From an uncultured Nitrososphaerota archaeon (GTDB lineage Archaea; Thermoproteota; Nitrososphaeria; Conexivisphaerales; DTJL01): a stretch of DNA of 64,000 nucleotides. The translations under genes were made by a program, and so were the position numbers. Where the stretch lies: positions 194,684-258,683 of the forward strand of contig CAWJIE010000003.1 in NCBI GenBank assembly GCA_963842885.1. The letters are read 5' to 3'. Of this stretch, positions 4,887 through 41,166 are shown in pieces (position 1 is the stretch's first letter; the number at the start of each line of letters is the position of its first letter). A model generated the notes under the pieces. That model was not told the DNA's origin. It searched no databases and saw only the letters and a list, made by a program, of their open reading frames with translations.

Positions 4887-4891
4887 TTGGG

Positions 4892-6949: not shown

Positions 6950-6979
6950 AAACACGCGGCCATTGCCCCTATCCATACC

Positions 6980-19478: not shown

Positions 19479-20123
19479 TCAAGGGATCCCTATCTCTTCA
19501 ACGAAGAGCCTGCCCACGACATCGGGTCTCCCGAAAAGCCCCGGCTTAGGGGCGTGGAGGGTCACCGTGACGTCGGCCTTGACGACGAGACCATGGTCCT
19601 CACCCGTATCGGAGTCCAAGCCAGAAGGAACGTCCACGGCCACGCGTAGTGCCTTGGCACCGTTGATCATCTCTATCGCCGAGGCGTGCGGTTCGCCCAC
19701 CTCGCCCTTTACGCCCGTGCCGAAAATGGCGTCGATGATGACCTGGGAGGATCGAAAGAGAGGCTCCAGCAGGCGGAGCTCGCCAGCCGTGCCCACTTCA
19801 ATCACTCGGACGTCAGCCATCGTGGAGAGCACCTGCCACTGCAGCGATGCCTCTTCAGCCTTTACCTTCTTCCGGTCACCCAGGAGGATGACCGTAACAG
19901 AGGCCCTGTCGTGGAGGTGCCGCCCGGCCGCGGCGCCGTCCCCTCCATTGTTGCCCGTGCCCGCGACCACAAGAACGGCTGGCTTCAAACTGAGGTCGTA
20001 CAGCCGTCCAACGACCTGGGCCAGAGCCTTCCCGGCGTTCTCCATCATCAGAAGCCTGGAGATGCCACTGGCGGCTGCCTTGTCCTCAGCCCTTCTCATT
20101 GAAGATGTGTCTACGGCCTTCAC
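19479..20123 (-). CDS. nnrE: NAD(P)H-hydrate epimerase (YjeF N-terminal domain)
   Basis: 214 aa; MENAGKALA and VLVVAGTGNNGGDGAAAGRHL. Confidence 0.75.
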   Translation of the reverse strand: MKAVDTSSMRRAEDKAAASGISRLLMMENAGKALAQVVGRLYDLSLKPAVLVVAGTGNNGGDGAAAGRHLHDRASVTVILLGDRKKVKAEEASLQWQVLSTMADVRVIEVGTAGELRLLEPLFRSSQVIIDAIFGTGVKGEVGEPHASAIEMINGAKALRVAVDVPSGLDSDTGEDHGLVVKADVTVTLHAPKPGLFGRPDVVGRLFVEEIGIP

Positions 20124-22883: not shown

Positions 22884-23813
22884 CTACTCTGACTTGACGC
22901 TCTTTGTGACGTCGCTCGCAACGTCGGCGGTTTCAGAGAAGATCTCAGAGCTGACCTTGTGCTTGAGAGGATGCGTCGGTTCGGGCTTATCAAGGAGTTT
23001 CGTCAGTCTGAGATGCTCTCCGGTGCCTCCGCGTCGGAGCTTGATGATCTCAGCCATTATAGAGATGGCTATCTCCTCCGGGGTCTCGGCGCCGATGTCG
23101 ATGCCGACGGGGGCATAAATCTGGAACAGCCTCGCGGCCGGCACACCCTCCTTAACAAGGTCCCTGTAGGCAGCATTGACACGGTTCTTGCTTCCAACCA
23201 TGCCGACGTAACGAGCCTTGGTGTCAAGCACGGAGCGAAGCGCCTCTACGTCGTACCGGTGCTCTGTGATGACCAATATGCTGTCATAGGAGGTGATCTT
23301 GACCTCCTTTATCTTCTGGAGCACGTCCTGTGTATAGATCTCGGCGTTAGGGAATGCCGATTCAGTGGCGAAGGGATCCAGGACCATCACGCGCTGTCCT
23401 AGGATCTCGGCTATCCGGTAGCAGCCCTTGGCGATGTTGCCAGATCCGAACATAATCAGGCGCTCAGGAGGCTCCACTAGCTCCAGCGCGATCTTGACCG
23501 TACCGCCGCACGCCATCCCCAGGCCGCTCCAGCTCTCGTCTCCGAGATTGAAGGTCTTGACACGAGTCTGGCCGTCCTCGAACACAAAGCGCGCCTCCCG
23601 GACCACATACTTCTCGACACAGCCGCCGCCGATCGTGCCCACCGTGGGCCCCGACTCTGGGATGACCATCTTCGTGCTGACTCCCCTCGGGACGGAACCG
23701 TCAGCCTCGACGACAGTTGCTACGACAATGCGCAACCCGTCGCCCAACATCCTCGACACGACAGTGTAGATGTCTTCCAAGCGGCTACACCAAGACTTCC
23801 AGCTCAGTCCCAC
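22884..23813 (-). CDS. XdhC/CoxI-family molybdenum-cofactor chaperone
   Basis: 309 aa; ATVVEADGSVPRGVSTKMV..GTIGGGCVE, Rossmann-like LIMFGSGNIAKG and YVGMVGSKNR. Start overlaps the tusA-like stop by 10 nt. Confidence 0.8.
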   Translation of the reverse strand: MGLSWKSWCSRLEDIYTVVSRMLGDGLRIVVATVVEADGSVPRGVSTKMVIPESGPTVGTIGGGCVEKYVVREARFVFEDGQTRVKTFNLGDESWSGLGMACGGTVKIALELVEPPERLIMFGSGNIAKGCYRIAEILGQRVMVLDPFATESAFPNAEIYTQDVLQKIKEVKITSYDSILVITEHRYDVEALRSVLDTKARYVGMVGSKNRVNAAYRDLVKEGVPAARLFQIYAPVGIDIGAETPEEIAISIMAEIIKLRRGGTGEHLRLTKLLDKPEPTHPLKHKVSSEIFSETADVASDVTKSVKSE

Positions 23814-24100
23814 CTTTGCCCGCAGGGGCCGATGGCCGGGAGCGGCTTATCCGCCATCTTCTCGGGAGATTTCTTGACAACCAGATGAAAATCCTCACCC
23901 TCTTCTCTGGAGTTCACGATCTCCTGGCCATGGTTCCAGCAGTACCTTAGAACGTTGTCCTTAGACGTGTGGTCGTTGACGACGATCTCTATGACCTCTC
24001 CCATCTGGGCTCCTTCGATCGCCCGCTTTGTCATCAAAATGGGCTTGGGGCAGGGTTCGTTCCTCGCATCAACCACCAATTGCGCTGCCGTTTTGGTCAA
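23804..24100 (-). CDS. tusA: TusA/SirA-like sulfur-carrier protein
   Basis: 98 aa; DARNEPCPKPILMTKRAI (CPxP active-site motif). Confidence 0.75.
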   Translation of the reverse strand: MTKTAAQLVVDARNEPCPKPILMTKRAIEGAQMGEVIEIVVNDHTSKDNVLRYCWNHGQEIVNSREEGEDFHLVVKKSPEKMADKPLPAIGPCGQRWD

Positions 24101-24304
24101 CAGTAATCCTTTGCATTTACGTGCAGGTGGTTTAAAATGTTATCCATGCGGGTCGAATGTAAAATAAATGCGATATGAACCTAGGACGTGGACGCGGCTC
24201 TGTGGCGAGCAAGTGGCAAGAGCTCCTCAGACGCAGGATGTGTAGGCCTTCATATTGACGAGGCAGATATCGTGTCCGGTACTTGTCGTCTTCTCTCGCC
24301 GCTT

Positions 24305-24320
24305 ACAATACTAATATAGC
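24305..24320 (+). promoter_or_regulatory. Putative TATA box (ACAATACTAATATAGC) upstream of the NapH-like gene
   Basis: AT-rich box about 15-25 nt upstream of ATG 24334, implying a short or absent leader. Confidence 0.35.
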
Positions 24321-24333
24321 TAGCAGGCAATTC

Positions 24334-25546
24334 ATGTCCCGGAACACCATGTTCAGGAAGCTGTTCCCGACCAGCAATGCTGCGACTGACCTCGTGGTGG
24401 TTATTGCAATCGTGGTTGCCGTCAGCTTCTTCATCTACTCGGCATCCGGCATCTTCATCGGAGGCATCCTGGCTTTCCTGTTCGGGCTGGCCACATGGAC
24501 CCTCATGACTTCGCCGAAGCCTTACAGGCTGAGGAGCATTTTCGTGTTCGGCCTTACTCTGGCGACCTGGACCGCCTTCCTGGCGTTCCTCGCCGAGCTG
24601 GGCCCCTCGTACTTGGGCAGGTGGCTCAGCACGCACGAGAGGGTCCCGCTGACGCCTGCCCCCATCACCACCAGCGGCTTCGTCTCCATCCTGTGCCCCT
24701 ATCTCCTCCCCGCGGCCCTGGGGCAGCCTGTGACCGTCTCTGTTCCCGTCTATATCAAGTTCTTCTCGTCTTTTCCGCCCAGCATCGACCTCTTCTCCGT
24801 AATCTTTCTATCCTACGTCGCCACCGCATTCGTGCTCGGCAAGGGCTGGTGCGGATGGCTGTGCCCATTCGGCGGGCTTGGAGAGACTCTGCGCCAACGC
24901 CACGAGCCCCTCAAGGTCTACACGAAGTCAGTGAAATGGATCAAGGATGTCTCGTCGCGGAGAGGCTTCGACCTCGAAGGCATGGAGCCGGGCCAGATGC
25001 TCCGCGACGTGAAGTACGCCTTCCTCGTCGTCACCCTCCTCCTGGCCCTCTTCTACTCAGTGCAATGGTTCTGCGTCTTCTGCTGGGCCGGGATCCTGGG
25101 GTGGTTCAGGTCGTCACTCAACATCTACGATCTTCATGGTCATCATGGGCGCCCTCTTCCTCGGGCTTCCTCTGCTCAGCACCAAGAAGTGGTGCCATTC
25201 CATCTGCCCGGTGGGCGCCGGCCTGAGCTTGGTGGACAGGGCCACTCCTTTCAGGATATCCGTGGACGAAGCCAAATGCAACGAATGCTATGACTGCTTG
25301 AACATCTGCCCCACCTTCGGGTTCGCCACGAAGGCAGACGGCGCGGTATACGTGACCGACACCTGCGACAAATGCTTGGTCTGCGTGTACAAGTGCCCCA
25401 GCAAGGCCATAGACCTGCACCTGTACAACATCAAGACAGATGCAAAGAAGTTCCTCATCCCTAGCGCGACGATCCTTGGCGCCTTCTGGTTCTACTGGTT
25501 CATCGTCGTGGTCTACAATCTCATCACGCTGAGGGTGCTCTTCTGA
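24334..25546 (+). CDS. NapH/MauN-like polytopic membrane iron-sulfur protein; apparent frameshift near 25115-25130
   Basis: KGWCGWLCPFGG and KKWCHSICPVG motifs, plus C-terminal CNECYDCLNICP and CDKCLVCVYKCP ferredoxin motifs. Several TM stretches. Confidence 0.65.
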
Positions 25547-26239
25547 TGGCTCTCGACACGCTGGCGGCAGGCCTCCTTCTCGGGCTCAGCAGCGGAGTGC
25601 AGTGCACCGTTACCTGCCTGCCCCTCCTGCTCACCCAGCTCACCGGGGGAAAAAGGACCGCGAGGGACGGCCTGCGCATATCTGTTCTTTTCTCACTGGG
25701 GAGGCTGGTGGTCTACTTCACTCTGTCCTGCCTTCTCTACTATTCCTTCAGGGCGTTCAGCGGAGCCTTAGGCAACCCCGTACCCGAATCGATTACGACG
25801 GCGCTGATGGGCGCGATCCTGATCTACTATTGTTTTCGAGCGATCGAAAGGAAGAAGGACACATCTTGCGCGGCAAGGTCCAAGGCCAAGCTCATCCGCC
25901 TGCCGTTCACCTCCCTTGCCGTGACCGCCAAGCCAGGGAGGAGCTGGACCGCTCTCTTCCTCGGCATCGTCTCGAGCATGAGCGTCTGCCTCCCGCTCGT
26001 GGCACTGATCTCCATTTCGGTCGCCTCTGACCTGGTCACCACCTTCACTTCGGTATCGATGTTCTGGCTGGGTTCGTCCGTCTACTCGATCGGGCTCGCG
26101 TTGGCGTTGGCTGGTGTCTCCCGCGTCAGGATAGGGGCGTCGCTGAGCAAGAGGGTGGGCTTCGTCGGAAGCCTTTCTGGCATCTTGCTGGGAGCGTTCA
26201 TGCTACTCGCAGGCTCTGGGCTCGCTGGCCCTTCCCTAG
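25546..26239 (+). CDS. DsbD_2/CcdA-like membrane protein; C-terminus uncertain
   Basis: LGLSSGVQCTVTCLPLL in the first TM helix, six or more hydrophobic segments. Start overlaps the upstream stop (TGATG). The track ORF runs to 26529 across the convergent YeeE gene; a TAG at 26237-26239 is one frame off. Confidence 0.5.
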
Positions 26240-26703
26240 AACAGCCGCGTGAAGACGCTGACGTAGTTCACAACCACGAACTGGAAGAAGAGGATCCCGA
26301 TGTAGAATCCTACCAGATAGATGATGGCGGCTCCGTTGCCAGTGGTGGCGTTGACGTGCTGCCTCAGTGGACATCCTTCCGCCATCACCGAGAAGAAGGC
26401 ATAGCCCAGGCCGCCTATCACCGACAGGATCAATGTGGCGACGGAGCTCGCGCCAGGTTCGTTATGCAGCATCAGAGGGAAATCAGCCATATGCGGAGAG
26501 AACCTGAAGAACAGAAGGTAGCCGACTAAGGCTCCGAGCGCCATGCCTACGATGGTCCTCATGAAAAGCGTGTCCCTGAAAAGGTAGAAGTCGCGGTATC
26601 CCGATATGGAACACGACTTCGACCTCTGCCATAGGTAGCCTATGATACCCCCAGCCGCGAGCGTGGTCAAGCCGATTTCCAGAGTCAAAGGCGGACCCTC
26701 CAT
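26236..26703 (-). CDS. YeeE/YedE-family sulfur/selenium transport protein, C-terminal-half homologue
   Basis: 155 aa, multi-TM; SKSCSISGYRDFYLFRD and AEGCPLRQH motifs typical of the family. Confidence 0.7.
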   Translation of the reverse strand: MEGPPLTLEIGLTTLAAGGIIGYLWQRSKSCSISGYRDFYLFRDTLFMRTIVGMALGALVGYLLFFRFSPHMADFPLMLHNEPGASSVATLILSVIGGLGYAFFSVMAEGCPLRQHVNATTGNGAAIIYLVGFYIGILFFQFVVVNYVSVFTRLF

Positions 26704-27173
26704 TTGATGTAGTTCGCTGAAATCACCACGCCGGAGATCATGCCGATGAGCCCCACGAGCGCTACGAAACTGCCGTACATCAAGGCCATTATGATGTGGA
26801 CGGAGCAGTAGCCCAACGTCAGCCCGAACATGGCCACGAAGAAACCGTTGATGAAATGATCCAGTGGATGCCTGGGCATGCGGAAGCTGAACTCCTTGTT
26901 CCGGAAGGTGGAGATGGAAGCGCCCACCAGCACGCCTACCACCGTCAGCACGGGGATGTCCACCGACGGATCATGGACATAGAGCGTCGTCCCGAACAGA
27001 TGGTTCACGATCCAGTCAATGAGGTCACTGGGGTGGCTGATGAAGCAGATGCCGAACGCCGACGGAGGGGCGACGTACACCCAAGCCTGGGCCACGGCGG
27101 CCCACAGGCCGGTCACGAACCCAGCTGTAAGCTTGTCTACCTTCAAGTGCATGCTCACCCTAGAAGGTATCAA
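26685..27173 (-). CDS. YeeE/YedE-family sulfur/selenium transport protein, N-terminal-half homologue
   Basis: 162 aa, multi-TM; PSAFGICFISHP and LGYCSVH conserved-Cys motifs. Overlaps the next gene by 19 nt. Confidence 0.7.
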   Translation of the reverse strand: MIPSRVSMHLKVDKLTAGFVTGLWAAVAQAWVYVAPPSAFGICFISHPSDLIDWIVNHLFGTTLYVHDPSVDIPVLTVVGVLVGASISTFRNKEFSFRMPRHPLDHFINGFFVAMFGLTLGYCSVHIIMALMYGSFVALVGLIGMISGVVISANYIKWRVRL

Positions 27174-28032
27174 CTACCTTGACCACAGCCTCCCCGATGT
27201 GCTTTATGATTTCAAAGACCTGCGTAGCAGGCGTAGGGTTCGTCATCTGGCCTGCCAGGCGATTGGCGTGCCCCGCTATGAGGCAGGCGCGAATCGGCTC
27301 ATAGCCTCCTGAGATGAGCGCGGAGACCATCCCGGTAATCGTGTCCCCCGTCCCACCAATGGGCTCCAGGGCAGGGATGTTGGGCTCAGAGATGGTGTAC
27401 ATAATCTTGCCGTCGTCGACGATGAAGTCGGTGGGCCCCTTGATGAGGAGATACCGAGGAGCGTTGCCGCCGGCATAGGCCTTCTCTATGAGCTTGGGCA
27501 CCTCCGTCGTGTCTATGTCGAAGAGCATGGATTTCACGTAGGCCGGGTGACCGGCCTCGGGATCGGCGAGGAAACATATCTCTCCGGCGTCGGGGGTGAA
27601 CAGGTCGAACTTCTTGCACGCGCCCGTGGCCTTCGCTATGAGCATGGAGCCCGCGTCGGCGATCATGAAGGGCCTCTTCTCCCAGTAGTCGAGCATCTCG
27701 ACGAACTCCATGAACGGTTTCCTGATGGGGAGGATGTAGTGCATGGTCACGGCGTTGGCGCCCAGCGCCCCGGCCTTCTCCGTGAGGTATGCGTACAGGG
27801 CGGCCGAACCGGCGCCCTTTCCCATGTCGCCGGCCACCACCCCCATGGGTGCCTCTATGCCCAAGGCCTCGGCCGCGGTGGCGGACGCGGCCATCATGGC
27901 CATGGCGCCTATGGAGCCCAGCTCCTTGGGGATGTACTTGTCTCCCAGCGAGATGGACCTGCCATCGTACTTTATCGTGCCGAAGATGAGGGAACTGTCC
28001 TCGACGGGCAGCGTCCCCGAAAGGAGGAGCAT
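27160..28032 (-). CDS. YjeF_C-like carbohydrate-kinase-fold protein (related to ADP-dependent NAD(P)HX dehydratase)
   Basis: 290 aa; FMIADAGSM, LFTPDAGEICFLAD, LLIKGPTDFIV and EPIGGTGDTITGMVSALISGG. Confidence 0.55.
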   Translation of the reverse strand: MLLLSGTLPVEDSSLIFGTIKYDGRSISLGDKYIPKELGSIGAMAMMAASATAAEALGIEAPMGVVAGDMGKGAGSAALYAYLTEKAGALGANAVTMHYILPIRKPFMEFVEMLDYWEKRPFMIADAGSMLIAKATGACKKFDLFTPDAGEICFLADPEAGHPAYVKSMLFDIDTTEVPKLIEKAYAGGNAPRYLLIKGPTDFIVDDGKIMYTISEPNIPALEPIGGTGDTITGMVSALISGGYEPIRACLIAGHANRLAGQMTNPTPATQVFEIIKHIGEAVVKVVDTF

Positions 28033-28593
28033 CTATTTCATCTTCTTCCAAGCTTGCAGGGCGGCTTCGTATGCCTTCTGCAAAGTGTATGCGCAGAGAG
28101 TGAAGCCCAGCTCGTTGGGCGAAACAGCCTTGTCGAGCGGCTGCCCTATCATCCTGAGAGCGAGGAGGGGGATGTCCGGGCATCCTCCACCAGATATGTT
28201 CACGATGACGCCCGTGGCCTTCTCGAACGTAAGCTTCATGTTCCCGACGCGGATCATCAGGTACTTCCCGAAGTCGACCTTCTTGACAAGTTTGCTGACC
28301 TGAAGCGGAGGGAGGTCGCCTTCGGATGCGAACACGACATCGAGTATGGGTATCCCGTCCGCCCTGAGCACCTTCTCTGCGGCGTTGACCTGGTTGCTGG
28401 GGACTGACATGGCGATGTCGCAGCCCGTCCTGACTTCAGGAGGTGGGGCGCCGGCCTTGGTATCGAGACCGGCTCGCTTGAGGACATGCTCGGCCCTCAT
28501 GGCATCCCTGAAAAGCTCGAAGAGGAAGAGAGACCTGGAGAGGCCGTATTGATCGGTCCGCTTATGCGGGGAAGACAACGCGTCGCTCGACAC
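28033..28593 (-). CDS. DUF3343 (putative Se/S-carrier-like) domain protein with an extra C-terminal Cys domain
   Basis: 186 aa; LFLFELFRDAMRAEHVLKRAGLD..PPPEVRTGCDIAMSV fits DUF3343. The C-terminal half has NISGGGCPDIP. Confidence 0.55.
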   Translation of the reverse strand: MSSDALSSPHKRTDQYGLSRSLFLFELFRDAMRAEHVLKRAGLDTKAGAPPPEVRTGCDIAMSVPSNQVNAAEKVLRADGIPILDVVFASEGDLPPLQVSKLVKKVDFGKYLMIRVGNMKLTFEKATGVIVNISGGGCPDIPLLALRMIGQPLDKAVSPNELGFTLCAYTLQKAYEAALQAWKKMK

Positions 28594-28725
28594 ATCATCG
28601 ACACCGTATGATATAATCGTTTGACTCGTCCGATACGCAATTCGTATTTATTCTATCTATCATGCTACAGATGCCTGGTTCCGCCCTGTGCACGCAGCCC
28701 AGTCCGGGTTGTGACTGAACCCGAA

Positions 28726-29206
28726 CTATGCCATCTTTGCGGTCTCCGAATCCAATCCCTCAAGCGTCTCGGCCAGCTTCTTGACGGCGACGACGACCTC
28801 AGGCGTGGGCTTCCCCTTCATCTTCCTGACTTGGACCCCTAGCGAGCATGATTCTGGTGCCCTCCAGCTCAGAGGCGATTACATGCGCCAGCACGGACAA
28901 CGGGAACTTGTGCACCAGAAAGAACTTGGTCTCCTGTCTCAGAAGGTCCTCCAGCACCAATTCGCCCGGCGCCAGGTTCCTGTCGACGGCATTGACCATC
29001 AGTATGACTTCAGGCCGGGCCTCCAAGACGTTAGGGACGAACTTCTCTGGCGCCGTTTCGCAGAGGAGTGCCCTGATGTTCACTAGGTGTCTGTGGACCT
29101 TTCTAAAAAGAAGAGGGCCAGCGACGTCGTCTCCGAAGTCGCTGCCTACGCACATCATCAAGGTTCGCCGGCCCTTTATAAGCCGGCGAATCTCTGCTGG
29201 GTCCAT
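28726..29206 (-). CDS. [NiFe]-hydrogenase maturation endopeptidase; apparent frameshift near 28838-28848
   Basis: LMMCVGSDFGDDVAGPLL, ILMVNAVDRNLAPGE, then GVQVRKMKGKPTPEVVVAVKKLAETL in the next frame. Confidence 0.7.
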
Positions 29207-29219
29207 TAGTGAGCTACGG

Positions 29220-30087
29220 TCAGGCGGTCTGGGCGGCCGGGGCTATTTGCTTTGCGTCCTTCAGCATCGCGTTGTACATGCCGACGAAGTTGAACGAGAA
29301 CGGGCAGACCCCTGCGCATAGGTTGCATTGGGTGCAGGTAGCCATCTGTTCCGAGACGTACTTCACCTCGGTCGGCGTCAGCCCCCTGCTCCTCTGTATC
29401 TGGTAGTACTTCCTCAGCTTCAGCACGGGCGCCTCCATTGGGTCGTGGTTGAAAGCTTCGTAGGTGGGGCATACCTCCACGCATCTCCCGCACCTTCCGC
29501 AGGCGGACGCGAAGGCGAGCATGTTGGTGCCAGTGTCGGCCTTTGTGACCCTCCAGTACAGGGTGGCGATGCCGTGCCTTACGGCCCCTCCTGCGAAGAA
29601 GGAGACCACCAGCCACACGTATATCAGCAGCAGGTGGAGCGTGCCGAAGTAGGCGTAGGCGGGTGTCCCGAAGCTCGACTAGCGACACGAAGCCGAAGAC
29701 CTCGATTGCCTGCACGAGGCCGACGACCGCGATGGGCACAAGGAACACCAGATCGACGAAGAACACCTTGCCATAGGCGACCCTGAAGAAGGGGTTCCTC
29801 ATGTATCGGAGCACCAGCCCGATCCCACCCGCGATGATGAGGATGCCGGTGATGCCGTGTATCCAGGAGAGGAGCCATCCGTAGCCTCCAAACACGTCGG
29901 CCGTGCCGGCGAGCAGGAAGGGGACCTCCATCACGAGACCCGTGATTATGTTGCCCCAGAGGCCGAGATGAAATACGAAGTCGCTCAGACCGACCGTGAA
30001 GCTTCTCGAGAAGAGGAGCGACAGGAGCCCTGGTTTCTGGGCGTGCAGCGAAGACAGTTTGTACTTCTGTTCCTTGCTCTTTGCCAT
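29220..30087 (-). CDS. Membrane di-haem-b-like (NarI/DsrM/HdrE-type) subunit fused to a 2x[4Fe-4S] (HdrC-like) domain; apparent frameshift near 29668-29672
   Basis: Four His in predicted TM helices (FVFHLG, SWIHGI, GTLHLL, AVRHGI). C-terminal CGRCGRCVEVCP and CTQCNLCAGVCP. No CCG-type domain seen. Confidence 0.6.
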
Positions 30088-30088
30088 T

Positions 30089-31012
30089 CTACTTCACCAC
30101 TTTCTCCTCTTTCTTGACGACCATCGGCGTCTCTTCCTTCCTGTTGTCGCGCCATCTGAGCGCGAAGAATGCCACTCCAGCCAGCAGAGGGATCCATGCG
30201 AGCCTCACCCACTGTTCGGCCGTCGAGAAGAGCTTGTTCTGGGCTGGGTAGGCGGACTTCACCACCGTGACCTCGGGCGTGGTGGACATTGTCTTGAATT
30301 CGTCGGCCGTAAGGACGTAGAAGGTTGACGTGTCGTTCTGGTAGAGCATCGTCGCGCCGTTGCCCAGTGCTGTGACCACATCTTGTCCGGTCGAAACCAT
30401 TTCGCTGCACGAACCCCAGTTCTTGGCGGTGGTGGTGAGGTTCGCGGCCTGGAGAGTCATGGCCGTCGGTCCCCCGCCGGGGCAGACCTGTACGCAGAAG
30501 GGCTGGTGGTGCCGTCCTCCGTGAAGTTGACGCAATGGTCGCACTTCAGGATCTTCTTGTTGACGTTGTCTGTGGTTATCGAGCCGAATGGGCAGACCGA
30601 CGTGCAAAGGAAGCAGCCGATGCACCTGTCCTTGTCATAGGACACCGTGCCCGACGGCAGTTGGGTCAGCGCGTGCGTCTGGCAGACGGTGGCGCAGGGT
30701 GCGTCGTTGCAGTGGAGGCAGTTCTCTGGAATGGGCAATGTGCCGTTAGGGCCTGGCGTGGCGACCCTGGTGTAGGCGTTGCTTGACGGGGTATTTTCTG
30801 ACAGTGCTCAGGTCTGGCTTCGTCATGCCGCTGTGGTACTGGTTGCAGGCTTCGACGCAATGGTCGCACCCGATGCAGTTCCCCACGACGATCAGCATGG
30901 CCCTCTTGGGTGTGTTGGCTTGGACCAGCTTCGGCGCCATGGCCGCCGTGACCACGACGAGGCTGCCGCCTGCGGCCGCGGTCTTCATGAAGGTCCTTCT
31001 ATCCATGTTCAT
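30089..31012 (-). CDS. Tat-signal 4x[4Fe-4S] HybA/DmsB/DsrO-like ferredoxin with C-terminal membrane anchor; two apparent frameshifts
   Basis: MNMDRRTFMKTAAAGG (twin-arginine motif). CIGCDHCVEAC, CLHCNDAPCATVC, CIGCFLCTSVCP and CDHC..CVQVCP. C-terminal LAWIPLLAGVAFFALRW helix. Pieces lie in three frames (shifts near 30745-30790 and 30495-30510). Confidence 0.7.
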
Positions 31013-31013
31013 C

Positions 31014-32428
31014 CTAATTCCCTCCAATAACCCGTTTCACCTTGCCATCCTCGTCCATCAGCTCGACCTTCAGGGCTTTCTCGAGGTGCGTAGCGCACGA
31101 GATGCACGGGTCGTAGGCTCTGATGACCAGGCCCACTTCATGCCATAGGTTGTCCTCGTTGACCTTCCCTGGGCTGACGTTCCGGTTCGCCGCGCTCCAG
31201 AGCGAAGCCTCGAAACCGTTGGCGTTGACGACGGTGGGCGTGATTATGTTGGCCTTGGTGATGTAGCCCTCGTCATTCCACTTGTAGTTGTGGATGACCG
31301 TTCCCCTTGCCGCCTCGCAGCAGCCGGCTCCTTCACCGGCCTTCATCTTGAAGGGGGTCTTGAGCTCTCCCTGGGTGATCGATGTGTCCGAGAGCAGCTG
31401 CTCGAGCCTTTCAGCGGCGTACACCAGGCAGACGTACCTGGCGAGGTTGTACTGCAGGGTCCCATGAACCGGGGAGCCGTACTTGCCCCTCAGTTCCTTG
31501 AGGAGCTTGTCGGCCATGTCGGTGCCGGCGCTCTTGGCTACGTTGACGCGAGCCAGAGGTCCGGTGCGGATGAAGGCCCTGTCCTTCTGCTGTCCCTTCA
31601 CCGTGACGCTCTTTCCGTAGGAGTATTCGCAGGGGTTCCTCCGCTATCTGGTTCATGTAGTCGGAGATCTTGAACTCGGAGATCTTGGCGCCCGCCTTGT
31701 CGATGATGGTGATGTCCCCCTTGTAGAAGCTGATGTTCCCTGCGTCGCTCATCGCCATGTAGCCTGACTCCACCTTGCCGAGTTCGATGTTGTCGTCCAC
31801 GAACTTCTGCAGCACCGGGGCGATGGCGGCGTCGTACCAGCCTATGACGTTCTTCTTCGCCTCCAGGACGTAGCCGAGGAGCTTCTTCCTAGTTTCCTCG
31901 TCGATTCCCCTGTTGAACCCGCCTGGGACGGCGGTCATCGGGATGGACGGCCTGAACGCCGATGGTCTCGATTATCTTCTGGCCCACCGCACGCGTGTAA
32001 ACGACCTGCTTGGCGACCTCGGGGAACTTCCTGTAGACCCCTATGATGTCGCGCTGCTTGAAGGGTAGCTCCGGGAGCAGGTAGTCGGGCCCCGCCAGTA
32101 TGAACAGATGCAGCGTGTGGTCGCCGAGTATCTCGCCCATCAGCATAAGCTCCCTGAGCTTCTCCGCCCGCTCTGGTATCTCGAGGCCAAGGCCGTTGTC
32201 GATGGCCTTGGCGCTGGCCAGGTGGTGGGGGATCGGGCAGACCCCGCAGATTCTGGTCACGATTATGGGGGCCCTGTGGACGAGCCTTCCTTCCAGGAAT
32301 CGCTCGAAGCCCCTGAACTCGGCAAAGTCTGCCATAGTCTTCGTGACCTTGCCCTTCTGATCTAGCTGCACCTTGACGTTAAGGTGCCCTTCGATTCTTG
32401 TTACCGGATCGATTTCAATTTGACTCAA
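31014..32428 (-). CDS. [NiFe]-hydrogenase large subunit (about 470 aa); two apparent frameshifts
   Basis: VTRIEGH, RICGVCPIPHH and DPCISCATH followed by a 23-aa C-terminal extension. Three ORF pieces joined at about 31938-31941 and 31632-31635 (C/G runs). Confidence 0.85.
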
Positions 32429-32434
32429 GTCTTG

Positions 32435-32914
32435 CTAACCTCCCAGTAGTTCGCTCAACAGCTCCTTGATTACCGGTCCCGGAGGGGGGCATCCAGGTAT
32501 CACATAGTCGACCTTGACGTGCTTGGAAAGTGGTTCCAGCTTGTCGAGGATCTCAGCGCCCTGGGTGGGCGCCTTGCCATCGTAGGCCGCTGTCAACAGC
32601 TCCTCGTTGGTACTCAGGTTCGCCAGACCGGCCAGCCCGCCGGTGCTCGGGCAGGTCCCGAACGAAACGAGGATCTTCGACTTCTTCCTTGCCGCTTGAA
32701 CTCTCTCCAATTCATGCTTAGTCCGCACCACGCCTATCACGAAGGTGACGTCTGCCTGGTCATAATCGATGGCGCTAGCCAAGACGGGTGCATAGACAAG
32801 ATCGACGCTCTTGTCTAACACCTTCAGCAGGCCGACGCCAAGATCAGCCAAAGCTATTTCACATCCTCCGCAGATAGCACAGTCTTCGATTGCGAGTTTT
32901 GCTTTAGCCGCCAT
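32435..32914 (-). CDS. [NiFe]-hydrogenase small subunit, minimal form (159 aa, proximal cluster only, no Tat signal)
   Basis: CAICGGCE, FGTCPSTGG and IPGCPP. N-terminus MAAKAKLAIED lacks a twin-arginine. Confidence 0.8.
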   Translation of the reverse strand: MAAKAKLAIEDCAICGGCEIALADLGVGLLKVLDKSVDLVYAPVLASAIDYDQADVTFVIGVVRTKHELERVQAARKKSKILVSFGTCPSTGGLAGLANLSTNEELLTAAYDGKAPTQGAEILDKLEPLSKHVKVDYVIPGCPPPGPVIKELLSELLGG

Positions 32915-33121
32915 AGCCTATAACTCAACCTATGAGTCGTTGTTACTCTAATAAGTCTAACCTACTGGTAATAATTACAGACTCTGGGTGAATGAAGAAG
33001 AACGTAGTGTAATTATAGCAAGCGTATAGCGATTAAATTCCTTCAAGCCCTTCAGGCTGCAACAGGCTCCCGAGGCATCCGCAAAGGCTTAAAGCCGTTA
33101 AAGGGGACGTGAGCTACACCG

Positions 33122-33673
33122 ATGCAATCGTTCAAGGTCATCGTTCTGTCTTCGGCCGGAGTGGCCATCGCCCTCCTTCTATCCCACTACACGATGACGT
33201 ATCAATTCGGCGTGTTGGTGGCCCTGCCGCAGCTGGGCGTATTCCTTGCTGCCGGGGCAGGCGGGCCCATATGGGGTCTGCTCGCAGGAGCGGCAGGAGG
33301 GCTGGGGCTCTATTACGGTCATTCTGACACCACGTGGCTGACCGTCTTGACCCTGACTGGGCTTACAGCAGGGCTCTTGTCCACCAAGTTCAGACCGACG
33401 GCGGCGGCCTTCGTGTCGTGGTTGACGGTGGGCCTGGTAGCCTCGTATGTCATCTACGCGCAGAACGGCCAGCCCAGCCAAGCCTTCTACTCCTGGCTCG
33501 CGACCTTCTCCTACGAGGTCGTGATATCGGCCACCGTCGTGGATGTACTGCTGTCGCTGTTTCGCGTGAGCAGAATAAAACAGAAAAAGGTTGAAAGCAG
33601 TGAAGTGGCGGCAGGCTCAGAAGCTCAGACAGAGGTCGGCCTCTATCATACGCCTGCTAATCTCGGCCCTTGA
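33122..33673 (+). CDS. Hypothetical polytopic membrane protein
   Basis: 183 aa, about five hydrophobic segments, Gly/Ala-rich helices. Divergent from the hydrogenase operon across an AT-rich spacer. Confidence 0.45.
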   Translation: MQSFKVIVLSSAGVAIALLLSHYTMTYQFGVLVALPQLGVFLAAGAGGPIWGLLAGAAGGLGLYYGHSDTTWLTVLTLTGLTAGLLSTKFRPTAAAFVSWLTVGLVASYVIYAQNGQPSQAFYSWLATFSYEVVISATVVDVLLSLFRVSRIKQKKVESSEVAAGSEAQTEVGLYHTPANLGP

Positions 33674-33967
33674 AGCGATGGCGAAGTCGTCTGCGAGGAG
33701 CTTGGGGTCAATCCCCTCCTCCCTGAGGGATTCCTCTTCGACGAGGAACTTCTTCCCTCCTTCGTCAGGGAAGAACTCGAGGAACTTCAAGGCGTATTCC
33801 CTGTCAACCCCCTTGACGGCGCAGCGAGCCCCCTTCCCCACGAAGGCTGCTGTCACCGTGTGGTTCTCATCGCCGCTAAGCATTCCAGCTGAGACCCTAA
33901 GCCCTTCCACGAAATAGGCACTGCTTACAGGAGGACGGAGGAACAGGACGAGGATGTTCTTGGACAA
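33617..33967 (-). CDS. DsrF/TusC-like protein
   Basis: 116 aa; ILVLFLRPPVSSAYFVEGLRV..AAFVGKGARC and C-terminal DLCLSF; DsrE/F-fold pattern. Confidence 0.6.
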   Translation of the reverse strand: MSKNILVLFLRPPVSSAYFVEGLRVSAGMLSGDENHTVTAAFVGKGARCAVKGVDREYALKFLEFFPDEGGKKFLVEEESLREEGIDPKLLADDFAIASRAEISRRMIEADLCLSF

Positions 33968-33979
33968 TTCTCGAGCCCC

Positions 33980-34240
33980 CTAGAGGAAGTTCACGACCTT
34001 GTCGGTCTCCATCATGCCGACCAAGTCGTCGAAGCCGATCGGATGGGCACCACTGGGGAAGGAGTCCCCAAGGCCACGGCGCGCAGCGTCGTCGCGGATG
34101 TAGTACACCTCTCCCTTGAAAGCACCTCTCTTTGCGACGTAGACTCCGTCCTGGAGCAAGACAACTCGGGCTCCCGGGTCGTTGGCAGCGTACGCAAAGG
34201 CCAGGTTCGCGAAAGGCTCGTCGATTAGATACAAAGTCAA
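33980..34240 (-). CDS. DsrH/TusB-like protein
   Basis: 86 aa; VVLLQDGVYVA..VYYIRDDAARRGL pattern. Confidence 0.6.
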   Translation of the reverse strand: MTLYLIDEPFANLAFAYAANDPGARVVLLQDGVYVAKRGAFKGEVYYIRDDAARRGLGDSFPSGAHPIGFDDLVGMMETDKVVNFL

Positions 34241-34253
34241 TCCACATCTCTTC

Positions 34254-34631
34254 CTATATCGTTATCAGTCTGCCACACTTGCTGGCCATGCCTGAGACGA
34301 AAGCGACGCTCACGATCTTCACGCCCTTGTAGTAGTCCTTCCCCTCGTCGAGCCCTCGGTTGTAGCTGCAGACCTCGCAGGCGTATATCTCGGCCCCCTT
34401 GGCCAACAGCGCCTTAAAGGAGTCCATGGGTAGCCTCTGCAGCACGGGAAACACCTGCGTCCCCAGAGCGTTGTAGATGCCGTCCAAGAACAGGAAGAAG
34501 GTGACCTTGTGTGATCTGTTCAAGGCGGCATCGGCGATCTTGCAGGCCGTGTCCCATCTTTGAGTCTGATACGGTCCTCCTGTCAGTATAATCCCAATGT
34601 CGGTCAATCTGAGTCTGTTGGACAGGGGCAT
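34254..34631 (-). CDS. DsrE/TusD-like sulfurtransferase
   Basis: 125 aa; IGIILTGGPY, VTFFLFLDGIY and IYACEVCSYNRGL (conserved Cys position). Confidence 0.65.
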   Translation of the reverse strand: MPLSNRLRLTDIGIILTGGPYQTQRWDTACKIADAALNRSHKVTFFLFLDGIYNALGTQVFPVLQRLPMDSFKALLAKGAEIYACEVCSYNRGLDEGKDYYKGVKIVSVAFVSGMASKCGRLITI

Positions 34632-35149: not shown

Positions 35150-35227
35150 TGGTGCGAGGCGCGGGATTTGGACCCGCGTTGCCACCTTGGGAGGGTGACG
35201 TCCTGGACTAGGCTAGACCAGCCTCGC
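35150..35227 (-). tRNA. tRNA-Gly (anticodon CCC), CCA encoded
   Basis: Manual fold: acceptor GCGAGGC/GCCTCGC. D stem GTCT/GGAC. Anticodon stem TCACC/GGTGG with loop CTCCCAA. T stem GCGGG/CCCGC with loop TCCAAAT. Discriminator A, then CCA. Confidence 0.85.
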
Positions 35228-36963: not shown

Positions 36964-38564
36964 ATGGAGATGCAGGCTAGACAGGAATCGAAGAACCTGA
37001 TTAGCGCCACGAAGAGCATCTGCCCAGAATGCAACAGGACCATCCCGGCGGAAATCTCCGCCAAGGATGGCAAGGTCTACATATCGAAGACCTGTCCCGA
37101 CCACGGGTATTTCGAAGACTTGTACTTCGGGGACTACGACATGTACGTCAGGTTCTCCAAGTACGCCAAGGATGGCAGGGGCATCGAGAACCCCGACATC
37201 GTGGCGGCAGCCGTGAACTGCCCCGCGAGCTGCGGCCTCTGTTCCAACCATCTCAGTCATACCGCACTTGCCAACATCATTGTGACGAACCGCTGCGATC
37301 TCAACTGCTGGTACTGCTTCTTCTACGCCGAGAAGGCCGGTTACATCTACGAGCCGTCCCTGGACCAGATACGCGGCATGGTCAGGAAGATGCGAGCTGA
37401 GAAGCCTATCCCGGGTGCCGCCCTCCAGCTGACGGGAGGCGAACCTACGCTGAGGGAGGACCTATGGATATCATCAAGATAGCAAAGGAGGAGGGCGTAG
37501 AGCATGTCCAGCTTAACACGGACGGCATAAACCTCGCCAACGACGCCCTTCTTGCGCAAAAAGTGAAGGAGGCGGGGGTCAACACCGTATACCTGAGCTT
37601 CGACGGCGTCACTCCAAAGACCAACCCCAAGAACTACTGGGAGATCCCATCCGTCCTCAAGAACGCGAGGGCTGCGAGGCTGGGTCTGGTCCTTGTCCCC
37701 ACCGTGATCAGGGGCGTAAATGACCATGAAGTCGGGGACATGATCCGCTTCGGGTTCAAGAACAAAGACATAGTCAGATCTGTCAACTTCCAGCCGGTAT
37801 CTCTCGTGGGCCGTATGTCTAGGGGAGACCTGAGCAAGTACAGGATCACCATACCCGATGTCATAAGAAGGGTGGAGGAGCAGACGGACGGCGTGATTCA
37901 GAGGGACGACTGGTTCCCCGTCCCAGCCTCCATGCCGTTCTCCTCCTTCGTAGAGGCGTGGGTGGAGACGCCCAAGTACGAGCTGACAACGCACTTTGCC
38001 TGCGGGGCGGCGACCTACGTCTTCGAAAAGGACGGCAAGATGGTTCCGCTGACTAGGTTCATCGACATCCCTGGATTGCTGGAGTTCCTCTCGACCGAGT
38101 CCGTCGCTCTCGAGCATGGACGGTCAAAGGTCGTTTCCGGGGCTAAGCTCCTCTTGAAGCTCAGAAAGCTCGTGAACTCTGAGAGGGCGCCGGAGGGCTT
38201 GAAGCTGGGAGACATCCTCTACGACGCCATTGTCAAACATGACTACTCTTCGCTCGGAGAGTTCCACAAGCGCTCGCTGTTCGTCGGGACAATGCATTTC
38301 ATGGACAAGTACAACCATGACGAAGAAAGGGTCCGCCGGTGCGACGTCCACTACCTCACTCCCGACAATCGCATCATACCTTTCTGCAGCTTCAATGTCA
38401 TACCTGAATGGTACAGGGACGCAATACAGAAGAAGTACTCTATCTCCATCGAAGAATGGGAGAAGCGGACGGGGAGGACCTTGAAGTCTGGATACTACAA
38501 GCGCACACGTGCCCCTACCGGCGAGGACCAGAACCTCCTCAACCTTCCCAGAGTGCCTTCGTAA
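36964..38564 (+). CDS. Radical SAM protein of the COG1964 / tetraether lipid synthase (Tes, GDGT-MAS)-like family; apparent frameshift near 37459-37463
   Basis: N-terminal CPEC..CPDHG ribbon, CPASCGLCSNH, radical-SAM NRCDLNCWYCF, GGEPTLRED and a long C-terminal domain. About 530 aa after joining the two ORFs. Confidence 0.65.
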
Positions 38565-40204: not shown

Positions 40205-40642
40205 TTGGCTAGGATGGTGGACGTGTCCTCGAAGCCCGTCGTTAGGAGGGAGGCTGTCGCCGAGGGTTTTATCAAACTCAACAGCCGAACCCTGAAGGTC
40301 ATCAGGGAGAAGGGTCTCGAGAAGGGAGATGCCGAGGAGATAGCGAAGCTGGGGGCGATCACGGCCGCCAAGCGGACATCTGACATCTTGATGTTATGCC
40401 ATCCCATCCCCATCGAGGCCGTGGAAGTGGAGGTTGATGTGGAGAAGGACGGCGTAAGGGTCACCAGCCACGTCGTCGCACAGGCCAAGACAGGCGTGGA
40501 AATGGAGGCGCTTACGGCAGTCGCTATCGGGCTTCTCAACGTCTGGGACGTTACCAAGAGGTACGAGAAGGACGCCCAGGGGCAGTACCCTTCCACCGCT
40601 CTGCGGGACATCCACGTCGTGCGTAAGGTGAAGAAACAGTGA
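40205..40642 (+). CDS. moaC: Cyclic pyranopterin monophosphate synthase accessory protein MoaC
   Basis: 145 aa; KGDAEEIAKLGAITAAKRTSDILMLCHPIP and TGVEMEALTAVAIGLLNVWD. Confidence 0.85.
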   Translation: MARMVDVSSKPVVRREAVAEGFIKLNSRTLKVIREKGLEKGDAEEIAKLGAITAAKRTSDILMLCHPIPIEAVEVEVDVEKDGVRVTSHVVAQAKTGVEMEALTAVAIGLLNVWDVTKRYEKDAQGQYPSTALRDIHVVRKVKKQ

Positions 40643-41166
40643 GCTACACATCTGAGCACCACCACCGCGACAGGAAGGACCTGCGCCTCGGCATCATCAC
40701 CGTGAGCTCTTCACGGTCCGCAGCTGCCAGGGACGGAAAAGAAGTCATAGACGAATCCGGGGACAGGGCCTGCGCCATGACCAAGGAACAGGGTTTCCGC
40801 GTGACCTTCAGGAAGCTGGTGGGTGACGACATGATTGACATCCGCCTTGCCTTGTCGGAAGGGTTGGCGGCCGGCCTTGTCGATGCCCTGGTATTCATCG
40901 GCGGCACCGGGGCCGCTTCATCGGATGTGACGCCTGAGGCGGTGGAGCCAATCCTGAAGAAGGATCTCCCGGGCTTCGGCGAACTGTTTCGCCAGAGGAG
41001 CAGCCAGACGATCGGCTCTGCTTCGACCCTCAGCAGGGCGATGGCAGGGACTGTGGATACGGTCGCCGTCTTTTGCCTGCCGGGTTCTCTTGACGGGTCC
41101 GCCCTAGGGATGGAGATAGTCTTGGAAATCCTGCCTCACCTCAGGGCTGTGCTAGGGCCGCCCTAG
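40639..41166 (+). CDS. moaB: Molybdenum cofactor biosynthesis protein MoaB/MogA family
   Basis: 175 aa; LGIITVSSSR, FIGGTGAASSDVTPEA and AVFCLPGS. Overlaps the moaC stop. Confidence 0.8.
   Translation: MSYTSEHHHRDRKDLRLGIITVSSSRSAAARDGKEVIDESGDRACAMTKEQGFRVTFRKLVGDDMIDIRLALSEGLAAGLVDALVFIGGTGAASSDVTPEAVEPILKKDLPGFGELFRQRSSQTIGSASTLSRAMAGTVDTVAVFCLPGSLDGSALGMEIVLEILPHLRAVLGPP

Follow-up and report, generated by a model that had tools for sequence, protein, structure and literature searches.

A 12-kb island of chalcogen-carrier, XdhC-family, and [NiFe]-hydrogenase genes in a Conexivisphaerales archaeon

Gene content and layout of the island

The DNA considered here is a stretch of 64,000 nucleotides (64 kb; hereafter the window) of contig CAWJIE010000003.1 from an uncultured Nitrososphaerota archaeon, and the subject is an island at positions 22884-34631 that brings together sulfur- or selenium-carrier genes, a gene for an XdhC-family molybdenum-cofactor (Moco) chaperone, and a five-gene [NiFe]-hydrogenase operon. 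The window is archaeal, encoding aIF5B, aIF2-gamma, Rpo7, Spt4, exosome subunits, and mevalonate-pathway genes, and its closest proteins belong to Conexivisphaerales and other Nitrososphaerota metagenome-assembled genomes from peat, soil, and acid springs. A first-pass annotation proposed that the island is a candidate H2-linked chalcogen system; the 17 genes that it listed are all recovered in place by Pfam and NCBIfam searches, and, as it said, no unrelated gene lies among them. Comparison with about 100 related loci, including extra hydrogenase-bearing loci, suggests three modules rather than one machine. The reading tentatively favored here, with confidence a little short of even, is that the carriers act as a relay through XdhC to mature an exported molybdoenzyme, and that the hydrogenase is the transmembrane electron partner of that enzyme. 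The link between H2 and chalcogen would thus probably be indirect, with hydrogen not driving sulfur trafficking directly.

The G+C content of the island (0.57-0.60) equals that of its flanks, the window as a whole being about 59% throughout, so the region is not a compositional island, and recent transfer was rejected on the same ground. Its genes fall into six blocks that resemble transcription units; neighboring blocks are 182-207 nt apart, and within a block the genes overlap or leave at most 13 nt. The blocks are dsrE-H-F; a single membrane-protein gene; the hydrogenase operon (28799-32914, minus strand), running from small subunit and large subunit through HybA-like and cytochrome b-iron-sulfur (FeS) genes to HycI; DUF3343-YjeFC-YedEb-YedEa; NapH-DsbD_2; and TusA-XdhC. 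DUF3343 has a TATA-like box 24 nt ahead of its start, and the gap between the HycI and DUF3343 genes measures 99-218 nt in all lineages compared. Just past the DsrE end of the island is a tRNA-Gly(CCC) gene (35150-35227, minus strand), the sole RNA-family match in an Rfam scan of the window.

Two adjacent minus-strand genes form the carrier pair. One (28033-28593) encodes a two-domain cysteine carrier consisting of DUF3343 (Pfam Se_S_carrier, 1.1e-12) and DUF8182 (PF26554), the latter annotated on orthologues as the second domain. Three of its cysteines (C58, C138 within NISGGGCPD[IV]P, and C167) are invariant in archaea and bacteria alike, and its AlphaFold2 model (predicted local distance difference test, pLDDT, 85.7) has no significant match among PDB folds. 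The GGGCPD motif and single-linkage clustering had raised the idea that DUF8182 is a cryptic TusA domain, which is not supported, as there is neither a Pfam TusA match nor a significant PDB fold match. The other gene (27160-28032) encodes a divergent ribokinase-superfamily protein related to YjeF_C and ThiM and called YjeFC-like here (Carb_kinase, 30 bits). Its model (pLDDT 89.5) has a ribokinase fold nearest to those of the NAD(P)HX dehydratase TM0922 and the thiazole kinase ThiM (template modeling scores of 0.54-0.59 at 15-17% identity); the nucleotide-site motif GGTGDT and the motif FDLFTPD are invariant, and the protein probably catalyzes an ATP- or ADP-dependent step. YjeF_N (NAD(P)HX epimerase) is encoded by itself 7 kb from this gene, at 19479-20123 on the minus strand. 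The usual archaeal NAD(P)HX repair enzyme is a YjeF_N/YjeF_C fusion, and for this reason a part of the YjeF_C-like protein of the island in NAD(P)HX repair is worth asking about.

The remaining carrier genes, all on the minus strand, encode a YedE/YeeE-type channel in two pieces, a TusA-type protein, and a DsrEFH set. The two half-channels match the C-terminal half (26236-26703; Sulf_transp 3.6e-07) and the N-terminal half (26685-27173; Sulf_transp 8.1e-06) of YedE. Both score the selenium-linked model TIGR04112 (seleno_YedE) above the thiosulfate transporter TsuA, with 64.7 bits over positions 186-304 (TsuA, 22.8 bits) and 39.1 bits over positions 6-134, all YedE and YedF scores being below curated cut-offs. 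The TusA-type sulfur carrier (23804-24100; Pfam TusA 1.2e-19) is closest to the YedF N-domain (YedF 52.5 bits against TusA 33 bits in NCBIfam, both below cut-off). The cysteine of its CPxP motif (CPKP) and a C-terminal cysteine are invariant in all 11 sequences, and the archaeal core described below has an additional invariant C-terminal motif, GPCGxRWD. The DsrE/TusD-like subunit (34254-34631; Pfam DsrE 2.9e-18, 66.5 bits) carries an invariant ACxxC motif with both cysteines conserved in 10 of 10 sequences, and is accompanied by a DsrH/TusB-like subunit (33980-34240; Pfam DsrH 2e-05, 25.1 bits) and a DsrF/TusC-like subunit (33617-33967; Pfam DsrE/DsrF-like 4.5e-06). DsrE and DsrH pass the Pfam cut-offs; their best NCBIfam matches, TusD (33 bits) and TusB (27.5 bits), are below cut-off.

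The XdhC-family chaperone (22884-23813, minus strand; XdhC_CoxI 1.3e-19, XdhC_C 1.5e-31) is of the PaoD/XdhC-like kind, and its gene overlaps that of TusA by 10 nt, in line with the overlap first reported. In NCBIfam it scores highest on the XdhC-family aldehyde-oxidoreductase maturation factor, with 217 bits where the cut-off is 350, and it is below the equivalog cut-offs for both XdhC and this factor; two cysteines are invariant in 10 archaeal orthologues. Chaperones of this family bind Moco, whose oxo ligand is exchanged for sulfur from a persulfide donor before insertion into the enzyme, and PaoD performs such maturation for the periplasmic enzyme PaoABC (PMC2997495, PMC3909100). The presence of XdhC suggests that the relay ends in sulfuration of the cofactor. 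MoaC and MoaB/MogA-like genes (40205-41166, plus strand) lie 6 kb from the island. A second XdhC paralogue (56575-57330, minus strand), 34% identical to that of the island, adjoins genes for a DAO-type FAD oxidoreductase and a Zn-dependent dehydrogenase and no molybdoenzyme gene.

The hydrogenase operon and its membrane partners

Both catalytic subunits of the hydrogenase are closest to Mvh/Vhu, with VhuA and VhuG as best NCBIfam matches (the orthologue in locus L004 reaches 335 bits with VhuA, whose cut-off is 800). The large subunit (31014-32428, minus strand; MvhA of 5odc, 1.8e-95; group 3c-like) has the motifs RICGVCP and DPCISCATH, the latter with cysteine rather than selenocysteine, and a C-terminal extension. 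The small subunit (32435-32914, minus strand; Oxidored_q6 1.1e-24) aligns solely to the N-terminal half (residues 1-166) of MvhG/VhuG; at just 159 aa, it would therefore comprise the proximal cluster domain only. It starts MAAKAKLAIEDCAICGGC, with no RR motif and no signal peptide. The operon ends with a HycI-type maturation endopeptidase (28799-29206, minus strand), which has a weak Pfam HycI match, is annotated as HycI on orthologues, and has a C-terminal frameshift near 28843. Neither MvhD nor HdrABC occurs in the Pfam-annotated hydrogenase loci.

Two further subunits of the operon would connect the dimer to the membrane and beyond. The HybA/DsrO-like protein (30089-31027, minus strand; HybA 2.9e-22 and DsrO 9.2e-20, both below cut-off) has four predicted [4Fe-4S] clusters and is the only open reading frame (ORF) in the window with a twin-arginine translocation (Tat) signal; nine lineages conserve its RRxF motif, its 16 cysteines, and a hydrophobic helix at the C-terminus with W[RT] after it. 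The cytochrome b-FeS membrane subunit (29206-30087, minus strand; Fer4_8/Fer4_17; frameshift near 29680) has about four predicted transmembrane (TM) helices and ends in a 2x[4Fe-4S] domain; this domain is similar to the N-terminal part of TmcB/HmcF/DsrK, lacks their CCG domain, and matches TmcB (4.5e-10) over positions 21-118 of a 430-position model. It is neither HybB/NrfD nor HyaC. H40 and H77 are invariant, H171 is at least 90% conserved, and eight cysteines are invariant or at least 90% conserved. The family is rare (36 matches in 5.8e9 clusters; about 12 full-length 50% clusters in 1.84e9 representatives), and a metagenome scan for further loci yielded only 11.

The sidedness of the complex is suggested by a relative. 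In L084 (6306-7772), the small-subunit domain is preceded, in order, by a signal peptide, a domain of about 270 aa on the outside, a TM helix, and a stretch rich in Lys and Arg, a predicted topology that would place the small-subunit domain in the cytoplasm. A similar fusion of the small-subunit domain, with no large-subunit gene beside it, occurs in L086 (7706-9175). A cytoplasmic dimer and a Tat-exported HybA-like protein would lie on opposite sides of the membrane; export of the dimer by hitch-hiking on the HybA-like Tat signal is less likely, given the L084 fusion.

On the plus strand, a NapH/NosR-type membrane polyferredoxin (24283-25546; Fer4_5, Fer4; frameshift near 25125) has two CX3CP motifs (GWCGWLCP and KWCHSICP) and 2x[4Fe-4S]; its NapH match (5e-21) reaches 75 bits against a cut-off of 234, and NapAB is absent. 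The HybA-like protein could play the role of NapG. The stop codon of the NapH-like gene overlaps by 1 nt the start of a DsbD_2-family gene (25546-26250; DsbD_2 3.7e-10), which bears out the coupling noted earlier. The DsbD_2 protein has CxxxC in TM1 and an uncertain 3' gene end, for the ORF extends to 26529, but the orthologue alignment stops at 26214. A small polytopic membrane protein (33122-33673, plus strand) matches no family above cut-off.

Several of these genes are interrupted. Nucleotide alignment with intact orthologues (single ORFs in L001, L003, and L004) places seven window-specific 1-nt indels, near 31940 and 31630 in the large subunit, 30790 and 30503 in the HybA-like gene, where they compensate each other, 29680 in the cytochrome b-FeS gene, 28843 in HycI (a 1-nt insertion relative to three relatives), and 25125 in NapH, where a tblastn match to the intact L004 orthologue breaks into two frames at 25122/25130. 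Close relatives cover 21.4 kb, in which eight indels occur; seven of these are within the 4.9 kb of hydrogenase and NapH genes (binomial P ~2e-4), and the carrier and XdhC genes (4.6 kb) have none in the same comparison. Essential or housekeeping genes elsewhere in the window (4125-8732, 36964-38564, 52694-54971) are split in the same way, including type-2 isopentenyl-diphosphate isomerase (IDI2; 5680/5682), glutamyl-tRNA synthetase (GluRS; about 8270), a radical-SAM protein of the HMPTM type (about 37470), and a P-type ATPase (about 53640), and isopentenyl-phosphate kinase (IPK) is truncated; 1-nt indels are numerous in the assembly. Since these genes are split likewise and the orthologues of the island genes are intact, assembly error is favored over decay, the seven indels are probably locally clustered assembly errors, and pseudogenization specific to the island is down-weighted. 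Selenocysteine does not account for the breaks, which are changes of frame without an in-frame TGA.

Separable modules and an exported molybdoenzyme in related loci

A profile scan with the YjeFC-like gene as anchor, using one genome per species (GTDB species representatives), gives 473 related loci; the best 80 of these, with 10-kb flanks, were compared by a tblastn matrix and all-against-all ORF clustering. The YjeFC-like and DUF3343 genes are adjacent in 79 of the 80, a range that takes in Dehalococcoidia, Desulfobacterota, Nitrospirota (Thermodesulfovibrio), Moorella/Neomoorella, and archaea. YedE lies near the pair in 65 loci, often together with TusA, and in 11 bacterial loci the next gene, 100-1300 bp downstream of YjeFC-like, is SelD (TIGR00476, 361 bits). 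In the Dehalococcoidia loci L012-L025 and L030, GcvH-like lipoyl-carrier genes (14 loci) and dihydrolipoamide-dehydrogenase-like genes (10 loci) adjoin the pair. Genes resembling 2-hydroxyglutaryl-CoA-dehydratase D adjoin it in L006, L007, L009, L035, L038, L054, L062, and L067, and L086 (1-4952) has such genes and BcrAD/BadFG-type activase genes beside the hydrogenase module; STRING links of DUF3343/YedF in Slackia (PMC5322559) resemble these dehydratase neighbors.

The archaeal loci fall into two kinds. A compact Nitrososphaerota core (L006-L011, 60-69% identity), with dsrE-H-F divergent from DUF3343-YjeFC-TusA-XdhC, has no hydrogenase, YedE, NapH, or DsbD_2 and unrelated flanks. In the clade of the window (L001-L004, L092), DUF3343-YjeFC-YedE directly follows the hydrogenase operon on the same strand, and the same junction is found in L082/83/88 (77%), L005/L094 (about 72%), and L085, with rearranged surroundings in each. 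The neighborhood as a whole recurs in lineages at 57-94% protein identity with differing flanks. The co-localization is therefore beyond chance, as the first-pass annotation had supposed, and its expectation that the modules co-occur in relatives holds at this junction; it does not hold for the modules as such, which are separable. The carrier core occurs without hydrogenase in 6 archaeal and 67 bacterial loci, and the hydrogenase without the carrier core in six (L084, L086, L087, L089, L090, and L091). Within the archaeal core the TusA-XdhC pair is constant, and DsrF is kept together with DsrE and DsrH in 10 archaeal loci. A second, more divergent set of YedE halves, DUF3343-DUF8182, and YjeFC directly follows the first in L005 (11891-14252; 31-46% identity) and L085 (13644-16877).

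Among archaeal loci, the YedE halves are found only where the hydrogenase is present. NapH and DsbD_2 also accompany the hydrogenase rather than the carriers: NapH-like genes stand beside the hydrogenase in most distant loci, and the bacterial carrier loci contain only a few weak matches (24-32%). Homologues of the small membrane protein are confined to hydrogenase-bearing loci (L003, L004, L082, and L094).

Genes for a Tat-exported xanthine dehydrogenase (XDH)-family molybdoenzyme lie in or beside the island in different lineages (L082/83, L005/L094, L085, L010, and L011). In L082/83/88, a three-gene CoxS/L/M-like enzyme, comprising [2Fe-2S], 749-aa Moco, and FAD subunits, is encoded between NapH and TusA-XdhC. 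In L005, CoxSLM-like genes lie directly upstream of the hydrogenase small-subunit gene on the same strand, and in L085 and L094 they are neighbors of the hydrogenase; L010 and L011, without a hydrogenase, encode a paralogous enzyme next to XdhC. XdhC orthologues thus adjoin the enzyme in L082, L010, and L011 and have it nearby in L005 and L085. Every CoxS-like [2Fe-2S] subunit begins with a twin-arginine signal (T/SRRxFL; Tat model TIGR01409, 27 bits against a cut-off of 16.7), and the match continues over PaoA. The Moco subunit has 4-hydroxybenzoyl-CoA reductase (4-HBCR) as its best PDB match (2.3e-77), also resembles nicotine-pathway dehydrogenases and CoxL, and is below all equivalog cut-offs; identity as a form-I CO dehydrogenase is rejected because the AYRCSFR motif is not present. 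Two small genes (about 70 aa, and about 169 aa with a weak Asp_protease_2 match) accompany the enzyme in several lineages (L082:17855-18573, L005:14306-14940, and next to CoxM in L010 and L011).

Four of the hydrogenase loci that lack carriers have genes for other pterin enzymes or their accessory proteins nearby. The same operon adjoins AOR with MoeA, MoaD, and ModE-like regulator genes in L091; a Psr-like set of molybdenum-bis(pyranopterin guanine dinucleotide) (Mo-bisPGD) subunit, FeS protein (PsrB), and NrfD, with a NarJ-like chaperone and a NapH-like protein, in L089; Mo-bisPGD enzymes and NosR/ApbE in L084; and FdhD, a NarJ-like gene, and a Sulf_transp gene in L086.

The arrangement tentatively favored here may be outlined as follows. 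In module A, the split YedE channel, DUF3343-DUF8182, its ribokinase-fold partner, TusA, and DsrEFH would relay persulfide or possibly perselenide. In module B, XdhC would receive the sulfur or selenium atom, make a sulfido (or selenido) molybdenum cofactor, and insert it into the XDH-family enzyme before export. In module C, the Mvh-like [NiFe] dimer would face the cytoplasm, docked on the 2x[4Fe-4S] domain of the cytochrome b-like protein, with the HybA-like ferredoxin anchored on the outer face of the membrane; NapH/DsbD_2 and the small membrane protein would be accessories. The hydrogenase module would thereby act as a wire across the membrane, joining H2/H+ in the cytoplasm to a redox enzyme outside it. 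From the predicted sidedness, the energy-conserving direction would be oxidation of a substrate outside, with electrons passing inward to reduce protons to H2 inside (a redox loop), and the reverse direction is possible. The three modules may be kept together because their common client is a Tat-exported molybdo-pterin oxidoreductase. In the lineage of the window, the genes of this enzyme may have been lost or moved from the island, and with the enzyme missing the hydrogenase and chalcogen genes look directly coupled. The conserved adjacency behind the original H2-linked proposal stands, and the exported molybdoenzyme explains it better.

Several observations weigh against this arrangement. 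No molybdoenzyme gene lies within 10 kb in the window and L001-L004 and L092, or anywhere in the 64 kb of the window, so the client proposed for all three modules is not seen in this genome. Of the adjacencies in Conexivisphaerales loci that have the hydrogenase, the hydrogenase-DUF3343 junction varies least, and direct coupling would explain this too. L087 and L090 have the hydrogenase without a recognizable pterin enzyme nearby. Among bacterial carrier loci, XdhC or a molybdoenzyme is nearby in 1-2 of 67, and 11 precede SelD; the general role of the pair would therefore be upstream of Moco rather than specific to it. No cysteine desulfurase or other primary sulfur donor is recognized in the island, and the Pfam lists of the archaeal island loci contain no Aminotran_5. 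Three points are predictions from sequence: docking of the dimer on the FeS domain of the cytochrome b-FeS subunit, the binding of heme, and the direction in which electrons flow. Only two of the histidines in that subunit are strictly invariant.

Direct H2-linked chalcogen processing is an unlikely alternative, in which the hydrogenase with NapH/DsbD_2 would reduce sulfur or selenium species (S0, polysulfide, thiosulfate, or selenite) taken up through YedE and load DUF3343, TusA, and DsrEFH. It would account for the position of the operon, which immediately precedes DUF3343-YjeFC-YedE and shares its strand in all the Conexivisphaerales lineages examined that have the hydrogenase, and for archaeal YedE halves occurring only alongside the hydrogenase; Conexivisphaera is, moreover, described as a sulfur- and iron-reducer in an entry of the reference list of PMC9635834. 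It fits poorly with the loci in which either module occurs alone, with a cytoplasmic FeS domain that lacks the disulfide/persulfide-reducing CCG domain of DsrK/HdrD, and with the gap and TATA-like box between the hydrogenase and DUF3343 operons. The earlier statement that the window holds no terminal reductase stands as far as it was probed: tblastn searches with Mo-bisPGD, NrfD, AOR, and CoxL give no match in the window, including no S0, thiosulfate, or selenite reductase, and Dsr, Hdr, Apr, and Sat did not stand out among its ORFs or among the Pfam families listed for the archaeal loci, no probes specific to them having been used. That the modules have no functional link at all, the adjacency being inherited history in one archaeal family or the hydrogenase a decaying pseudogene cluster here, is somewhat less likely again. 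The separability of the modules at greater distance and the concentration of indels in the hydrogenase and NapH genes would suit this explanation, yet the junction persists at 57-77% identity while the flanks differ between lineages, the orthologues are intact in L001, L003, L004, L082, and L085, and the similar splitting of GluRS, IDI2, and IPK argues for assembly error over decay.

The two remaining alternatives concern the chalcogen itself and its destination. A relay that carries selenium is improbable; the island would then serve to mature a selenium-dependent molybdenum hydroxylase, which, as a third selenium trait, would be without precedent in Nitrososphaerota. The preference of the YedE halves for TIGR04112 over TsuA, the YedF-like TusA, the SelD genes downstream of YjeFC-like in bacteria, and the XDH-family enzyme in the island of relatives all point that way, as does the linkage of DUF3343, YedE, and YedF to SelD by comparative genomics (PMC5322559; bioRxiv 10.1101/2022.04.13.486033). 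Set against them are the failure to find SelD in the window or any archaeal locus examined, an XdhC that does not match the YqeB model, the lack of a recognized YqeC in the island, the YedE and YedF scores under curated cut-offs, the lack of a selenium-specific subfamily of DUF3343 (PMC5322559), and the report of archaeal selenocysteine use only in Methanococcales, Methanopyrales, and Lokiarchaeota (PMC11097638); sulfuration is also the default function of XdhC. Family scores and bacterial SelD adjacency thus lean toward selenium, and the missing archaeal SelD, YqeB, and YqeC and the biology of XdhC lean toward sulfur. A dissimilatory sulfur-oxidation or disproportionation module of the yeeE/yedE-tusA-dsrEFH (YTD) type, feeding DsrC/Hdr-type enzymes elsewhere and with XdhC incidental, is very improbable. 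YedE, TusA, and DsrEFH do define the YTD or dsrEFH type II cluster, known from 985 genomes of 20 phyla (PMC13293266; PMC8780430), and the active-site cysteine of DsrE is conserved. In the island, however, the TusA and XdhC genes overlap and stay together throughout the archaeal core, YedE is missing from the core loci L006-L011, DsrE and DsrH are recognized by the classical Pfam models, unlike type II (PMC13293266), and the window probes find no Psr, Sre, or other Mo-bisPGD reductase.

If maturation of an exported molybdoenzyme through XdhC is correct, the island would explain how an extracellular molybdoenzyme is matured and wired in non-ammonia-oxidizing Nitrososphaerota from peat and acid springs, and would give a role to their hitherto unexplained hydrogenase. 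The redox loop would make H2 inside from the oxidation of aldehydes or heterocycles outside, or run in reverse. The loading of carriers with selenium or sulfur is a missing step for which the DUF3343-DUF8182/ribokinase-fold pair is a candidate; in bacteria the pair would supply SelD, and in Nitrososphaerota a TusA-DsrEFH-XdhC route of Moco sulfuration or selenation. This pair and the opposite-sided membrane hydrogenase, whose dimer and electron-exit subunit would lie across the membrane from each other in an arrangement outside the usual group 1/group 3 classification, are the pieces most worth attention. It is doubtful, if conceivable, that a cytoplasmic group-3-type hydrogenase wired to exported pterin enzymes and a carrier pair feeding a SelD or XdhC route are both undescribed systems. 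Nothing specific was found in the literature on hydrogenase and sulfur genes of Conexivisphaerales/Gagatemarchaeaceae, and nothing that names DUF8182 or the pair with its kinase-like partner, on which the selenium- and sulfur-trafficking papers that treat DUF3343 are silent.

Comparison with described systems

The combination of genes was not recognized as a described system in the first-pass annotation, and no description of it was found in the literature; the region departs in at least one defining feature from each of its closest described counterparts. E. coli Hyd-2 (HybOABC-D), the Isp-type group 1e hydrogenases (HynSL-Isp1-Isp2), and DsrMKJOP/Hmc/Tmc are membrane-bound complexes with extra electron-transfer subunits. 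The operon logic is similar (small subunit, large subunit, Tat-FeS protein, membrane subunit, and protease), and DsrMKJOP/Hmc/Tmc share with the island a cytochrome b-like membrane protein that has a cytoplasmic DsrK/HmcF/TmcB-like FeS domain. In contrast to the group 1 (Hyb/Isp) enzymes, which have a Tat-dependent small subunit and a periplasmic dimer, the island dimer is group-3-like, lacks a Tat signal, and is predicted to have the opposite sidedness; a HybA-like ferredoxin is present but below cut-off, and where those enzymes have a quinone-interacting membrane subunit, the membrane protein here is from a rare family. The group 3c enzymes Mvh/Vhu (5odc) are the best match for both catalytic subunits and share the L1/L2 motifs, and, as predicted for the island dimer, they are cytoplasmic and without a signal peptide, with a C-terminal extension processed by a HycI-type protease. 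MvhG, however, is a three-cluster protein of about 290-310 aa, whereas the island small subunit is without the domain that holds the medial and distal clusters, and the soluble MvhD/HdrABC complex is replaced by the membrane cytochrome b-FeS fusion and the Tat-exported ferredoxin. The NapGH quinol dehydrogenase pairs NapH, with CX3CP motifs and two [4Fe-4S] clusters, with the Tat ferredoxin NapG; the NapH-like protein of the island reaches 75 bits where that model requires 234.

E. coli paoABCD and R. capsulatus XdhC/NifS4 (PMC2997495, PMC3909100) have a three-subunit XDH-family enzyme with the Tat signal on the [2Fe-2S] subunit, as do L082, L005, L085, L010, and L011. A dedicated XdhC-family chaperone encoded nearby and the need for a persulfide donor are common to both, and the XdhC_CoxI and XdhC_C domains that mark the XdhC/PaoD chaperones are present in the island XdhC. 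The donor would differ, being the TusA/DsrEFH/DUF3343-DUF8182/kinase-like set rather than a cysteine desulfurase (NifS4, IscS); the enzyme subunits of the relatives are below the PaoABC, XDH, and 4-HBCR equivalog cut-offs, and the enzyme genes are not in the window.

The YedE/YedF/DUF3343/SelD neighborhood (PMC5322559) unites YedE-like, YedF-N-like, and DUF3343 genes, as here, and the trait of selenium-dependent molybdenum hydroxylases (Haft & Self 2008, as cited in PMC11097638) recalls the XDH-family enzyme near the island in relatives. SelD, YqeB, and YqeC were, however, not found in the archaeal loci examined, and the account of the neighborhood (PMC5322559) is silent on DUF8182 and the obligatory ribokinase-fold partner.

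The YTD cluster with type II DsrEFH (PMC13293266, PMC8780430, PMC9751629) shares with the island a YedE/YeeE membrane protein, a CPxP TusA, and a DsrEFH carrier. Its two "conserved hypothetical proteins" were considered as possible counterparts of DUF3343 and YjeFC, an equation rejected on the finding that they are the DsrF and DsrH of type II (PMC13293266). Type II DsrEFH is too divergent for sequence-based annotation and less than 30% identical to type I (PMC13293266), and by that published description the island proteins differ, since DsrE and DsrH pass the Pfam cut-offs. The cysteine features of YTD are retained, the DsrE ACxxC and TusA CPKP motifs being invariant in 10-11 archaeal orthologues. 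The island YedE, by contrast, is encoded in two halves and does not occur in the deeper archaeal core, the order of the dsr genes is E-H-F, and YedE, TusA, and DsrEFH, although within 12 kb of each other, lie in separate units. No Dsr, Apr, or Qmo genes are listed among the neighbors of the island loci, and the island adds to the YTD set the DUF3343-DUF8182 carrier, the ribokinase-fold protein, and XdhC.

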